This document shows positions 1 through 7,297 of a stretch of DNA of 7,297 nt, one piece after another. Numbering within the stretch: the first letter of the stretch is position 1; each line of letters opens with the position of its first letter. The stretch is from a virus (taxonomy: Duplodnaviria > Heunggongvirae > Uroviricota > Caudoviricetes). The notes below the pieces were generated by a model. That model was not told the origin of the DNA. It did not search any database and saw nothing but the letters and a program-made list of their open reading frames with translations. A program made the translations under genes and the position numbers. The stretch lies in IMG/VR virus record IMGVR_UViG_2698536355_000008; one strand, 5' to 3'.

Positions 1-95
1 GAGCGTACTGCCGGAATGGCCTTCCAACCGAGTTGACGAACTCCTGCCATGGAACGTAGTACTCACCAATAAATAAGCGTCAATACGGTGCTCCG

Positions 96-287
96 TTGAC
101 GCTTACAAATCTTGTTAGTCATTACCGCATTATGTGTTTGCGAAAGAATGGGGCTGCGTTAATTAATTTTGTGGATGCTCGGGTCACGGACGGATTTATC
201 TTGCGCGAAGGTGAGTTTGTCACTTCATTACAGGCATTGAAAGAGATCGGAATAAAAGCTGGCTTTTCTGCTTTTTCAGGAGAATAA
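96..287 (+). CDS. Hypothetical small ORF (63 aa from TTG at 96, 52 aa from the first ATG at 132); no recognisable family
   Basis: Open frame in the six-frame track. No convincing Shine-Dalgarno before either start. No similarity I can recognise. It sits where hokD/relE would lie in K-12 Qin by my recall, but it does not resemble Hok. Confidence 0.2.
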   Translation: MTLTNLVSHYRIMCLRKNGAALINFVDARVTDGFILREGEFVTSLQALKEIGIKAGFSAFSGE

Positions 288-353
288 ACTCATCTACAAT
301 CTTGCGCGGGGCTGAACTCCCGCTGAGTAACACCGTGCCACCGGAGAAAACCG

Positions 354-632
354 ATGGCACGCAACGCAAAATATTACAATTCTGATAATTCGCCCGTTCT
401 TGCCTGCACGCACGGGCGGTATTCTCACGCATTCAAGTCTGAATGGTTCCAGCACCCTCCATGCACTGCAGAACAGGCCGAATGGCTGATTCATTCTTAC
501 CGCAGGCGCGGGTTCGAGGTTAAGAAAGCTCTCAGTCTCGACTATCGGCACTGGATAATCTCTGTCAGGCTGCCTTATTCCGAACGCCCACCACGTGCGT
601 CCCGCACTTTCCAGCAACGGATCTGGAGGTAA
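354..632 (+). CDS. Hypothetical 92-aa protein, translationally coupled to the downstream DUF968 gene
   Basis: ATG at 354 is preceded by GGAGA at 343-347 (6-nt spacing). Its TAA stop at 630-632 lies inside the GGAGG Shine-Dalgarno of the next gene and 1 nt before that gene's GTG at 634. It occupies the position that rem holds in Qin, but I cannot confirm identity with Rem. Confidence 0.5.
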   Translation: MARNAKYYNSDNSPVLACTHGRYSHAFKSEWFQHPPCTAEQAEWLIHSYRRRGFEVKKALSLDYRHWIISVRLPYSERPPRASRTFQQRIWR

Positions 633-633
633 C

Positions 634-1683
634 GTGCGGGTATTACTTAGACCTGTTCTGGTGCCTGAGCTTGGGCTGGTGGTCCTTAAGCCGGGCCGTG
701 AATCCATACAGATATTTCATAATCCTCGAGTGCTGGTGGAACCGGAACCAAAAAGCATGCGTAATCTGCCATCCGGAGTCGTTCCTGCCGTTCGCCAGCC
801 GCTGGCGGAAGACAAAACATTGCTGCCGTTTTTTAGTAACGAACGGGTGATTCGTGCTGCTGGCGGCGTTGGCGCATTGTCCGACTGGCTATTACGTCAT
901 GTTACATCCTGCCAGTGGCCTAATGGCGATTACCATCACACTGAAACAGTCATTCACCGTTATGGTACCGGCGCAATGGTGTTGTGCTGGCACTGCGACA
1001 ACCAACTGCGTGACCAGACATCGGAATCACTGGAGCTGCTTGCTCAACAAAATCTGACAGCATGGGTGATTGACGTCATCCGTCACGCAATAAGCGGTAC
1101 GCAGGAGCGGGAATTATCTTTGGCTGAATTATCCTGGTGGGCGGTCTGCAATCAGGTGGTGGATGCACTACCTGAGGCTGTATCGCGTCGTTCGCTGGGA
1201 TTACCAGCGGAAAAAATCTGCTCGGTGTACCGCGAAAGCGACATCGTACCGGGAGAGCAGACCGCCACCAGCATATTGAAACAACGCACAAAAAATCTTG
1301 CACCGTTGCCTTACGCCCACCAGCAACAAAAATCACCACAGGAAAAGACGGTGGTAAGCATCACCGTTGATCCAGAGTCTCCGGAATCTTTCATGAAGCT
1401 GCCTAAACGTCGCCGCTGGGTTAAGGAGAAATACACACGTTGGGTTAAGACACAGCCGTGTGCTTGCTGCGGTATGCCAGCCGACGATCCGCATCATCTG
1501 ATTGGTCACGGGCAGGGCGGAATGGGAACAAAAGCACATGATCTCTTTGTGTTGCCTTTGTGCAGAAAGCATCACAACGAGCTGCATACGGATACAGTGG
1601 CATTTGAAGATAAGTATGGCTCCCAACTGGAGCTGATATTTCGTTTTATCGATCGCGCGCTGGCAATTGGCGTACTGGCGTAA
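634..1683 (+). CDS. ydfU: DUF968-family prophage protein (YdfU-like) with a Cys/His-rich, HNH-like C-terminal motif
   Basis: Long ORF in the track (595..1683). GTG at 634 is in frame and preceded by GGAGG at 625-629, giving 349 aa, which matches my recollection of YdfU length. The C-terminus contains CACCG...DPHH...LCRKHHNELH. It lies immediately upstream of the Q gene, as in Qin. Confidence 0.75.
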   Translation: MRVLLRPVLVPELGLVVLKPGRESIQIFHNPRVLVEPEPKSMRNLPSGVVPAVRQPLAEDKTLLPFFSNERVIRAAGGVGALSDWLLRHVTSCQWPNGDYHHTETVIHRYGTGAMVLCWHCDNQLRDQTSESLELLAQQNLTAWVIDVIRHAISGTQERELSLAELSWWAVCNQVVDALPEAVSRRSLGLPAEKICSVYRESDIVPGEQTATSILKQRTKNLAPLPYAHQQQKSPQEKTVVSITVDPESPESFMKLPKRRRWVKEKYTRWVKTQPCACCGMPADDPHHLIGHGQGGMGTKAHDLFVLPLCRKHHNELHTDTVAFEDKYGSQLELIFRFIDRALAIGVLA

Positions 1684-1696
1684 GTGGAGAACGAGC

Positions 1697-2449
1697 ATGA
1701 ACCTTGAAGCCTTACCAAAATATTACTCCCCAAAATCTCCAAAATTGAGCGATGACGCTCCAGCGACAGGCACCGGTTGTTTAACAATTACGGATGTAAT
1801 GGCAGCGCAGGGGATGGTGCAGTCGAAAGCACCACTTGGGTTGGCCTTATTTCTGGCAAAAGTTGGTGTTCAGGACCCTCAGTTTGCGATTGAAGGCCTG
1901 CTAAATTACGCGATGGCACTGGATAACCCGACATTGAACAAATTGAGTGAAGAAATCCGGTTACAGATTATTCCTTACCTCGTGAGTTTTGCCTTTGCTG
2001 ATTACTCCAGGTCTGCGGCAAGTAAGGCTCGCTGTGAGCATTGTTCAGGTACGGGATTTTATAATGTATTGCGCGAAGTGGTGAAACACTACAGACGCGG
2101 GGAATCTGTAATCAAGGAAGAATGGGTGAAGGAACTATGTCAGCATTGCCATGGTAAGGGCGAAGCCAGCACAGCGTGCAGAGGGTGTAAGGGTAAAGGG
2201 ATTGTTCTGGATGAAAAAAGAACCCGGTTTCATGGCGTACCGGTATATAAGATTTGTGGGCGTTGTAATGGAAACCGGTTTAGTCGTTTACCGACCACGC
2301 TGGCACGACGTCATGTCCAGAAGCTGGTACCAGACCTGACCGATTATCAGTGGTATAAGGGGTATGCGGACGTCATTGGTAAACTGGTAACAAAGTGCTG
2401 GCAGGAAGAAGCATACGCGGAAGCGCAATTGAGGAAGGTGACGAGATAA
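1697..2449 (+). CDS. quuQ: Late-gene antitermination protein Q (QuuQ-like)
   Basis: ATG at 1697 with GGAGAA at 1685-1690 gives 250 aa (the track ORF from 1667 is 260 aa). The protein has four CxxCxG-type motifs (CEHCSGTG, CQHCHGKG, CRGCKGKG, CGRCNGN). Position upstream of the lysis genes fits a Q antiterminator. Family assignment is from memory. Confidence 0.8.
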   Translation: MNLEALPKYYSPKSPKLSDDAPATGTGCLTITDVMAAQGMVQSKAPLGLALFLAKVGVQDPQFAIEGLLNYAMALDNPTLNKLSEEIRLQIIPYLVSFAFADYSRSAASKARCEHCSGTGFYNVLREVVKHYRRGESVIKEEWVKELCQHCHGKGEASTACRGCKGKGIVLDEKRTRFHGVPVYKICGRCNGNRFSRLPTTLARRHVQKLVPDLTDYQWYKGYADVIGKLVTKCWQEEAYAEAQLRKVTR

Positions 2450-3216: not shown

Positions 3217-3223
3217 GATTGCG

Positions 3224-3383
3224 TCGGTTTGAAGAACAGACGATATACGAAGTAGTTTACTAAAGCAGTTCTCATTTCAGGTGTTATTCACTTATTCCTT
3301 CTTTGAGTCTCTCCAATTAAGTACGAAGTCGTTTCTGTTATGCAAACCATTTATGCCGAAAGGCTCAAGTTAAGGAATGTAGA
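3224..3383 (+). promoter_or_regulatory. cspB long 5' untranslated leader with cold-box-like and upstream-box elements
   Basis: About 160 nt lie between the predicted start site and the ATG. GGTTTGAAGAACAGACGATATACG (3226-3249) resembles the cspA cold box. GCCGAAAGGC (3355-3364) is identical to the conserved element in the cspA leader. Confidence 0.55.
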
Positions 3384-3599
3384 ATGTCAAATAAAATGAC
3401 TGGTTTAGTAAAATGGTTTAACGCTGATAAAGGTTTCGGCTTTATTTCTCCTGTTGATGGTAGTAAAGATGTGTTTGTGCATTTTTCTGCGATTCAGAAT
3501 GATAATTATCGAACCTTATTTGAAGGTCAAAAGGTTACCTTCTCTATAGAGAGTGGTGCTAAAGGTCCTGCAGCAGCAAATGTCATCATTACTGATTAA
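3384..3599 (+). CDS. cspB: Major cold-shock protein CspB
   Basis: 71-aa product [38 protein letters not shown]... carries the RNP1-like (KGFGFI) and RNP2-like (VFVHF) motifs. Shine-Dalgarno TAAGGAA precedes the ATG at 3384. Confidence 0.9.
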
Positions 3600-3880
3600 A
3601 ATTCATCGCTCGTCTGTATACGATAACGAAGAAGGCTGATGCCTGAGTAGAGATACGGACAGAGTAGTGAATATTGGATCTCTTTAATAAAAAGTAAGGA
3701 GGTCCAATACATGAAACAATGGCTAGCATATTTGGCAAAATCTTAATCAGGAAAAGTATGCTAACCATTGTGGTGAAGTGCAGGTTTGCTGCATGAATAG
3801 TTTTACAGCAGAAGCTAACTGCTGGCATGGCAAAACAAAGTGCGTAAGTGGATGACTCCCACAAAAAGCACCACAATCTC

Positions 3881-6119: not shown

Positions 6120-6270
6120 GGTGTTCTGGTTTGTTACAAATTTATCTGAAGCAGTCATTGTTATAATTTTATTATTTGTACCTCTTGAGATTTCCTTGTT
6201 GGTTTTTCTCTCTGATATTTTTTTTCGGACCATTCTGCCCAAGGGCTAATTTCTTCAAAAGGTAATAATT

Positions 6271-6483
6271 ATGTCTAACAAAATGACTGGTTTAGTGAAA
6301 TGGTTTAACCCTGAAAAAGGTTTTGGTTTCATCACGCCGAAAGATGGCAGCAAAGATGTGTTTGTCCATTTCTCAGCAATTCAGAGCAACGATTTCAAAA
6401 CATTAACTGAGAATCAGGAAGTTGAATTTGGTATTGAGAACGGACCTAAAGGTCCTGCCGCTGTTCATGTAGTGGCGCTTTGA
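6271..6483 (+). CDS. cspI: Cold-shock protein CspI
   Basis: 70-aa product [38 protein letters not shown]... with the cold-shock-domain RNP motifs. Its position after the spanin genes matches Qin. Confidence 0.9.
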
Positions 6484-6571
6484 GGTAGACAATATTACAA
6501 ACCATATTCACTTTAGATGCCCGTGTTGTCATGGTTCCCAGTATAGAACATCATCTTTTGATGTTTCTGAC

Positions 6572-7153: not shown

Positions 7154-7175
7154 ATGATGAATATTGAAAACTTAA
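7154..7175 (+). pseudogene. gnsB: 5' fragment of a gnsB-like gene truncated by an IS5 insertion
   Basis: AAAGAGGA Shine-Dalgarno (7144-7151) followed by ATG ATG AAT ATT GAA AAC TTA (M-M-N-I-E-N-L). This resembles the GnsA/GnsB N-terminus MNIEELKK as I recall it. The frame runs straight into the IS5 terminal repeat at 7176 and stops after 7 IS-encoded codons. Confidence 0.4.
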
Positions 7176-7297
7176 GGAAGGTGCGAACAAGTTCCTGATA
7201 TGAGATCATCATATTCATCCGGAGCGCATCCCAGAGGGACATCATGAGCCATCAACTCACCTTCGCCGATAGTGAATTCAGCACTAAGCGCCGTCAG
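7176..7297 (+). mobile_element. IS5-family insertion sequence, left end (partial; continues beyond the window)
   Basis: Terminal inverted repeat GGAAGGTGCGAACAAG at 7176-7191, immediately preceded by TTAA (7172-7175), which fits the IS5 YTAR target. The transposase N-terminus follows. Confidence 0.85.
7244..7297 (+). CDS. insH: IS5 transposase (InsH-like), N-terminal 18 codons, truncated by the window edge
   Basis: ATG at 7244 encodes MSHQLTFADSEFSTKRRQ, matching the IS5 transposase N-terminus from memory. Confidence 0.85.
   Translation, partial: MSHQLTFADSEFSTKRRQ

Follow-up and report, generated by a model that had tools for sequence, protein, structure and literature searches.

P1 Ref (PDB 3PLW) is an HNH endonuclease which cuts the D-loops made by RecA, and lambda NinG/Rap (PF05766) is a branch-specific endonuclease. 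YbcO of DLP12 and phage 82 (PF07102, DUF1364; PDB 3G27) is a bare catalytic domain of 96 amino acids (aa), usually followed by RusA, and to our knowledge its activity is unpublished. Gp16 of phage ΦNM1 has been described as a RecA-dependent HNH nickase that halts host replication and aids phage propagation, and the residues mutated in it were C148, C181 and H184 of the zinc site and H157, H185 and H189 of the catalytic centre (Xu et al., NAR 2026, PMC12817073). The subject of this work is YdfU, which was assigned together with YbcO to His-Me finger group 7 with a proposed role in recombination (Jablonska et al. 2017, PMC5714182), after an HNH motif had been noted in DUF968 proteins (Curtis et al. 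2014). As an earlier note on this DNA had said, the function of YdfU is uncharacterised: both ydfU and rem were still listed so in the 2024 y-ome survey (PMC11551758). Here, we analysed ydfU and the small gene in front of it in a stretch of 7,297 nucleotides (nt), hereafter the window, from the virus record IMGVR_UViG_2698536355_000008. The reading we prefer, to which we give a probability of roughly 0.65, is that YdfU is a recombination nuclease of the nin region, possibly directed by RecA, and that the 92-aa protein encoded before it is an independent conserved neighbour.

From base 107 to base 7297, the window matches the cryptic prophage Qin of E. coli at 100% identity, and the genes studied close the nin (delayed-early) region of this lambdoid element at its distal end. 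In a 100%-identical Qin prophage (locus L001, where window position x corresponds to x+5894), the RefSeq/PGAP coding sequences 6248-6526 and 6528-7577 coincide with window 354-632 and 634-1683, that is, with the two genes under study (Table 1). YdfU belongs to DUF968 (PF06147), with 256.8 bits against a threshold of 27.8 (E-value 1.4e-76) for residues 160-346 over the full 171-position profile, and the PHROG 96 family 'HNH endonuclease' spans its full length (E 3e-171). A search that was exhaustive over 1.84 billion representatives yielded 96 clusters (E <= 1e-30), and many of these hold full-length proteins (about 320-370 aa) with 26-58% identity. Full-length homologues were also found by tblastn in 173 phage records, including Stx phages, cdtI, mEp390, phages of Klebsiella, Yersinia, Serratia and Vibrio, and PdcB of P1. 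The AlphaFold2 (AF2) model of YdfU, with a predicted local distance difference test score (pLDDT) of 85, is made up of four regions, in all of which the ratio of nonsynonymous to synonymous substitution rates (dN/dS) lies between 0.09 and 0.27, as expected of a genuine gene under selection.

Judged by its motif and its modelled fold, the C-terminal part of YdfU (100 residues) is a predicted Zn-finger His-Me/HNH DNA nuclease. The motif C276xxC279-x8-H288 ... C310xxH313-H314-x3-H318 occupies residues 276-318 (nt 1459-1587). In alignment A3, made of 28 diverse family members with 26-80% identity, C276, H287, H288, K300, D303, H314 and H318 are invariant or nearly so (C276 strictly, and H287, H288, H314 and H318 in at least 90%), and C279, C310 and H313 are present in most. 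In the AF2 model this part forms a beta-beta-alpha finger, as in the beta-beta-alpha-metal fold. The earlier note had recognised an HNH-type Cys/His C-terminus and had asked for a predicted structure with a nuclease-like fold. Both the motif and the modelled finger bear it out, but the reading is not new, since it had been published in 2014 and 2017 by the authors cited above. Two full-length homologues (P0331 and P0386) have lost the catalytic HH, and their Zn/His motif is incomplete, a degenerate example being SPYLVVNHR...LCHQCQAEIAR; they are probably catalytically dead variants kept for another role.

What links YdfU to a defined activity is its likeness to Gp16 and Ref. When the family profile of YdfU was aligned with Gp16 by hhalign, a probability of 95% was obtained (E 3e-8). 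Gp16 itself matches HNHc_6 (PF16784) at 4.9e-117 and also passes the DUF968 threshold. Both proteins have the same spacing, CxxC-8 residues-H...CxxH-H-xxx-H, provided in YdfU by C276, C279, H288, C310, H313, H314 and H318, and the conserved positions of YdfU line up with the residues mutated in Gp16. The phage genes for both belong to the early or delayed-early class and are found close to SSB, RusA or replication genes. They differ in their N-terminal parts, which in Gp16 consist of a NinB-like domain (Orf, RAGNYA) unrelated to the N-terminal domains of YdfU. Ref differs as well, its N-terminus being disordered and basic, whereas that of YdfU is folded. YdfU reaches 26.3 bits in HNHc_6 (residues 271-328; threshold 26.6) and 17.8 bits in RecA_dep_nuc (PF16786), the Pfam family of Ref (residues 268-316; threshold 26.9), and thus belongs formally to neither family. 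Because of the bridge to Gp16 and the match to Ref, the most concrete mechanistic hypothesis, by extrapolation, is that YdfU may be a RecA-directed or D-loop/branch-directed nickase.

The remaining relatives place YdfU within the nin region. Its catalytic domain is of the same type as YbcO, to which it adds about 250 N-terminal residues, and YbcO was the sole match (E 0.38) in sequence searches of the PDB with YdfU or its profile. NinG/Rap belongs to the same superfamily, occupies the same slot between orf/ninB-type genes and Q and, in Gifsy-2-like and GF-2 phages, is also preceded by a homologue of the small gene; it differs in belonging to His-Me group 24 instead of 7, and no match of YdfU to PF05766 was found at E <= 0.1 in Pfam. 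P1 carries both Ref and, as a separate gene, the full-length YdfU homologue PdcB, annotated in the P1 record as 'unknown protein function'. PdcB is 26% identical to YdfU over 91% of its length and matches PHROG 96 at 2e-128 and DUF968 at 3.6e-50; the two genes have in common a GTG start and a position directly upstream of the late activator.

The N-terminal two thirds of YdfU contain a second set of Cys and His residues. The family phrog_11007 covers residues 2-134, and in the AF2 model a beta-beta-alpha hairpin (strands 105-110 and 113-118, helix 119-125) carries the set C93, Q94, H/C101, C118, W119, H/C121 and D122 (residues 93-123, nt 910-1002). It follows the pattern CQ...(H/C)H...LCWH(H/C)DN, with C93, Q94, C118, W119 and D122 conserved in alignment A3. 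From these residues, we consider it probably a structural Zn module. An internal duplication was tried as its origin: hhalign places this module in register with the C-terminal HNH over 67 columns (E 0.058), a score that is suggestive only and was not accepted. The module could be an ancient duplicate now serving as a structural Zn module.

The 92-aa open reading frame (ORF) upstream of ydfU is a genuine conserved gene and not a chance ORF, because its core has a low dN/dS, it has many homologue clusters and it matches PHROG 1212. For core codons 27-92, dN/dS is 0.10 (40 distinct alleles). Homologues fall into 129 close clusters and then 555 at profile level, all from Enterobacterales and all labelled 'hypothetical', and the exact 92-aa sequence occurs on at least 1000 contigs. 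The match to PHROG 1212, a family of unknown function, extends over residues 27-92 against the full 66-position profile (E 1.7e-35); no family of Pfam, NCBIfam or PADLOC was matched. Codons 1-26, by contrast with the core, are variable (dN/dS 0.81), are predicted to be disordered (pLDDT <50) and are absent from the homologues of 66 aa. An AF2 model, built from database homologues only, gives a pLDDT of about 90 at residues 30-70, and a structure search returned no informative neighbour. The protein is basic, with an isoelectric point (pI) of 10.2 (10.2-10.6 in the family), and has a conserved Arg/Trp tail. An identical ORF is present in MG1655 (NC_000913.3 c1644306-1644584), unannotated, in a stretch of 346 nt that the reference leaves empty between ydfU and rem; PGAP annotates the gene in other assemblies, including a re-sequence of K-12 MG1655. 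The protein was considered as NinE or NinF, but it has no Pfam match at E <= 0.1, and in phages of Erwinia and Pantoea the small gene and an annotated NinF occur together. P1 PdcA, also a protein of 66 aa encoded just upstream of pdcB, was discarded as a homologue, since it belongs to PHROG 3345 and shows no similarity.

The junction between the two genes is conserved. The earlier note had put the stop codon of the small gene inside the Shine-Dalgarno (SD) sequence of ydfU, 1 nt before its start. The close spacing stands, as it is unchanged (+1 nt) in 81 of 81 related loci, but the TAA follows GGAGG and does not lie inside it. The small gene ends in the sense codons TGG AGG (Trp-Arg), which make up the SD (625-629); the TAA abuts it, and a single C at 633 separates the stop from the GTG at 634. 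Stop/start spacing, an SD within the upstream ORF and conservation all agree with a translationally coupled gene pair, which is how we read the sequence. An alternative in-frame GTG lies upstream at 595 and would give the 362 aa of the old UniProt entry P76162. The GTG at 634 is the better supported start, because the cdtI-type, mEp390 and P1 PdcB homologues begin at the equivalent GTG behind an SD of their own. These homologues, which have no small gene upstream, all begin GTG-(R/K)-A-(L/I)-(L/I)-T-P, and the PHROG 96 alignment to YdfU starts at residue 1. A programmed +1 frameshift joining both ORFs was rejected by inspection: the ydfU frame is already open from 595, and no prfB-type slippery codon is seen at AGG-TAA-C. 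Databases contain a protein of 438 aa fusing the small ORF with YdfU (P0122) and four of 607 aa fusing YdfU with Q (P0123-P0126; DUF968 plus Antiterm domains), at 99-100% identity; they probably stem from sequencing errors, or from the gain or loss of one base, in the spacers of 1 nt and 13 nt. In the spacer between rem and the small gene, a stem-loop (305-323) had a folding z-score of -0.22, no better than shuffled sequences, and scans for promoters and terminators remained at chance level.

From the tight junction, the earlier note had concluded that the two genes are likely a functional pair. We examined 190 loci with a PHROG 1212 gene, taken from viral contigs and from one genome per species. 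The gene directly downstream is NinG in 92, YdfU in 81 and YbcO in 5, the others being RusA (1), an ORF of PY54 (1), one other gene and contig ends. Distinct small-protein sequences number 28 before YdfU, 23 before NinG and 5 before YbcO. The order is DUF1367, small gene, NinG in Gifsy-2, small gene, NinG in GF-2, and small gene, YbcO, RusA in mEp237, phiES15 and a Klebsiella phage. Before a nuclease, the junction is TGG-GGG/AGG, stop, 1-2 nt and start in all contexts (before NinG and YbcO, TGGGGG-TGA-nn-ATG), the codons of the invariant C-terminal Trp-Gly/Arg doubling as SD of the nuclease gene; in PY54, with no nuclease next, the small gene ends TGG-AAA-TAA. Seen from YdfU, no small gene was found within 3 kb in any of 80 cdtI-type loci (57% identity), in mEp390, which has no small gene, the YdfU homologue directly follows RusA, P1 likewise has none, and only about 20 of the 173 YdfU-bearing phage records have the 92-aa form. 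Since most YdfU homologues are without the small gene, and since it also precedes NinG or YbcO, we conclude that it is a general neighbour in nin regions and not a YdfU-specific subunit. Co-occurrence, which the earlier note had proposed as a check, was thus found in 81 loci but not where NinG or YbcO comes next or the small gene is absent, and the pairing does not hold as obligate. Nor does the junction argue for it, because coupling is the rule throughout these nin regions, where every gene regularly overlaps the next at stop and start or lies 1-5 nt away from it. In NinG- and YbcO-type nin regions (Gifsy-2, mEp237 and the Klebsiella phage; L003, L004 and L197), a homologue of DinI, a modulator of the RecA filament, lies 2-3 genes upstream of the block of DUF1367, small gene and nuclease. 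In PY54 an RdgC-like gene is directly upstream of the small gene, and RecA-related functions recur around it.

In the reading we prefer, the substrates of YdfU would be DNA intermediates of recombination or replication (D-loops and branched or RecA-bound DNA, for example), which it would nick or cut. H288 (or H287) would be the general base, H314 and H318 would hold the catalytic metal, and C276, C279, C310 and H313 a structural Zn, with the N-terminal two thirds presumably serving to recognise the substrate or a partner. Expression would probably be low owing to the conserved GTG start and, in K-12, also to Rho-dependent termination upstream. The small protein is most probably an independent nucleic-acid-binding or recombination accessory protein, its gene would be coupled in translation to whichever His-Me nuclease comes next through the SD in its last two codons, and the adjacency would reflect a conserved gene order. 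Several points weigh against this reading. The nuclease activity of YdfU and of its full-length homologues, PdcB included, is a prediction. RecA dependence and specificity for branched DNA would be carried over from Ref, Gp16 and Rap, with which only a catalytic core of about 60 residues is in common, and the HNHc_6 and RecA_dep_nuc scores given above both fall below the Pfam thresholds. The N-terminal 190 residues of YdfU, which would bear on the choice of substrate, have no known relative. The sample of loci is redundant, two lineages dominating it. Finally, a His-Me nuclease directly follows the small gene in 178 of about 182 evaluable loci, through swaps among three families and with varying upstream neighbours (Rem, DUF1367, YbcN and others), so that a functional link of the small gene with the shared catalytic core is possible.

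This last observation is the chief argument for a dedicated two-component nuclease, in which NinG/Rap, YbcO and YdfU would share the small protein as a co-translated accessory subunit that targets, binds DNA for or restrains the shared catalytic core, or acts on the same substrate. Retention of the SD in the last codons in three contexts and its loss in PY54 point the same way, as do the basic charge and the Arg/Trp tail. We nevertheless regard this explanation as unlikely, although ahead of the others. YdfU homologues mostly do without the small gene, and phages with NinG of the lambda type have NinF in its place. In more distant phages the small gene is not next to NinG: Erwinia phage 59 has a methylase and NinF between them, Pantoea PA-1 three ORFs, and Hafnia Pocitis76 a single ORF. 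In PhiR46_1 and PY54 the small gene lies beside RecE-like or RdgC-like genes. Moreover, small proteins 88% identical to each other are followed by different nucleases in different genomes, NinG and YbcO, without the co-variation expected with a partner. A bolder form, in which the PHROG 1212 protein is the common cofactor of nin His-Me nucleases, co-translated through the SD in its Trp-Gly/Arg codons and guiding or restraining them on RecA-bound or branched DNA, and YdfU and PdcB form a new class of RecA-directed nickases with a second degenerate beta-beta-alpha Zn module, seems to us less likely still.

The earlier note had also thought of an anti-defence or abortive-infection nuclease. A toxin-immunity module of this kind, with YdfU as toxic nuclease and the small protein as its antidote or regulator, would find some precedent in the arrest of host growth by overexpressed Gp16, a distant homologue (PMC12817073), and relBE and hokD are toxin-antitoxin loci just upstream in Qin. 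In K-12, ydfU is among the strongly Rho-silenced 'toxic prophage genes', and the Rho-dependent terminator upstream of it is among the strongest measured (PMC9160355). Window 276-625, across the small ORF, is C-rich and G-poor (C minus G up to +17% in 70-nt windows) and may, by its composition, correspond to this terminator zone. We hold the module idea to be very improbable, given that neither protein matches PADLOC 2.0 (E <= 0.01) or NCBIfam models, that most phages with the nuclease have no small gene, that the small gene is also found with non-toxic nucleases of the Rap type, and that a first, coupled small gene in nin position is what ordinary delayed-early phage genes look like.

The place of ydfU in front of the late activator agrees with what the earlier note had seen: Q lies 13 nt downstream, and ydfU fills the slot held in other lambdoid phages by NinG/Rap or by YbcO plus RusA. 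Genes of the YdfU family always directly precede a late activator, whichever of several unrelated ones it is (Qin-type Q, the short Q of cdtI and mEp390, Lpa in P1), and all start with GTG (including P1 pdcB, L193:2405-3448, and those of L191 and L192). The weakest explanation, that YdfU acts with the late-gene switch or in DNA packaging like the terminase-associated HK97 gp74, draws on this constancy across three Q families and P1 Lpa (with pacA/pacB next), but it can hardly be right when Q and the lysis cassette lie between ydfU and terminase in lambdoid phages, the gene is transcribed with the early nin genes upstream of Q, RusA is a frequent neighbour, and the nearest relatives with a solved structure or a characterisation (Ref, YbcO, Gp16) are enzymes linked to recombination or to RecA and not packaging HNHs.

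Table 1. Features of the two genes and of their surroundings, in window coordinates.
Feature	Position	Strand	Basis or remark
92-aa gene, ATG start, stop TAA 630-632	354..632	+	WP_012304870.1, PHROG 1212
GGAG Shine-Dalgarno of the small gene	343..346	+	Sequence reading; 7 nt before ATG
N-terminal extension, codons 1-26	354..431	+	Escherichia (YdfU-linked) clade only
Conserved core, codons 27-92	432..629	+	Beta-alpha-beta-beta fold and basic aromatic C-terminal tail PRxSRxxQQ+xW+
Coupling junction GGAGG-TAA-C-GTG	625..636	+	Identical in 81/81 YdfU-linked loci
ydfU (b1560 orthologue), 349 aa, GTG start, stop TAA 1681-1683	634..1683	+	DUF968 / PHROG 96
YdfU residues 1-55, small beta-rich N-terminal domain	634..798	+	AF2 strands 2-4, 7-10, 15-18, 48-50
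YdfU residues 56-190, helical domain with beta-beta-alpha hairpin and Cys/His set	799..1203	+	
YdfU residues 191-250, variable linker, partly disordered	1204..1383	+	pLDDT 40-68; indel-rich in alignment A3
YdfU residues 251-349, predicted Zn-finger His-Me (HNH) nuclease domain	1384..1680	+	
ydfT/quuQ, late-gene antiterminator Q	1697..2449	+	Pfam Antiterm E 3.6e-54, annotation; 13 nt 3' of ydfU
rem (b1561) 3' remnant	107..287	+	L001 and MG1655 annotation
IS66-family element ISEc23, right end, inserted in rem	1..106	+	Context, outside the module

At least 80% of the window was found in 1435 of 5426 complete E. coli genomes, and the genes follow each other in the order rem, 92-aa coding sequence, ydfU, ydfT/quuQ, cspF, cspB, ynfU, essQ, ydfR, rrrQ, rzpQ and cspI. 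Homology to Qin begins at base 107, after the transposase end of ISEc23, which matches thousands of E. coli records at 100%. The element interrupts rem near codon 24, with the loss of about 23 first codons, and cuts the block of small gene, ydfU and Q off from its usual upstream transcription; in most Qin copies, K-12 included, an intact rem is found at the matching position. At the other end, most E. coli matches to the window stop at 7175, and in the best match bases 7176-7297 correspond to an insertion of the IS5-like ISKpn26 downstream of ynfN; together with ISEc23, there are therefore two insertion sequences in this Qin copy. The Rfam cspA thermoregulator of the 5' untranslated region (RF01766) is matched over its full length twice, at 3223-3615 (158.8 bits) in front of cspB and at 6125-6510 (112.8 bits) in front of cspI.

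Both ydfU and its superfamily were known before; what is new here is the homology bridge to Gp16 and Ref, the K-12 gene, the junction and the full-length architecture. These findings do not overturn current understanding and are of moderate importance. They concern ydfU and P1 pdcB, genes which have long been without a known function in two genetic systems that are among the best studied, and for which the tie of the catalytic core to Gp16 and Ref, by profile and by residue spacing, provides a concrete hypothesis for direct testing; the architecture of YdfU and PdcB, with a second Zn-like module, adds to their description. The K-12 map of Qin gains a conserved protein-coding gene in a supposed intergenic region, the same that holds a strong Rho-dependent terminator zone (PMC9160355). 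Finally, the small gene carries in its two final sense codons an SD that is kept while three nucleases are swapped behind it, a case of lambdoid mosaicism that preserves expression signals.

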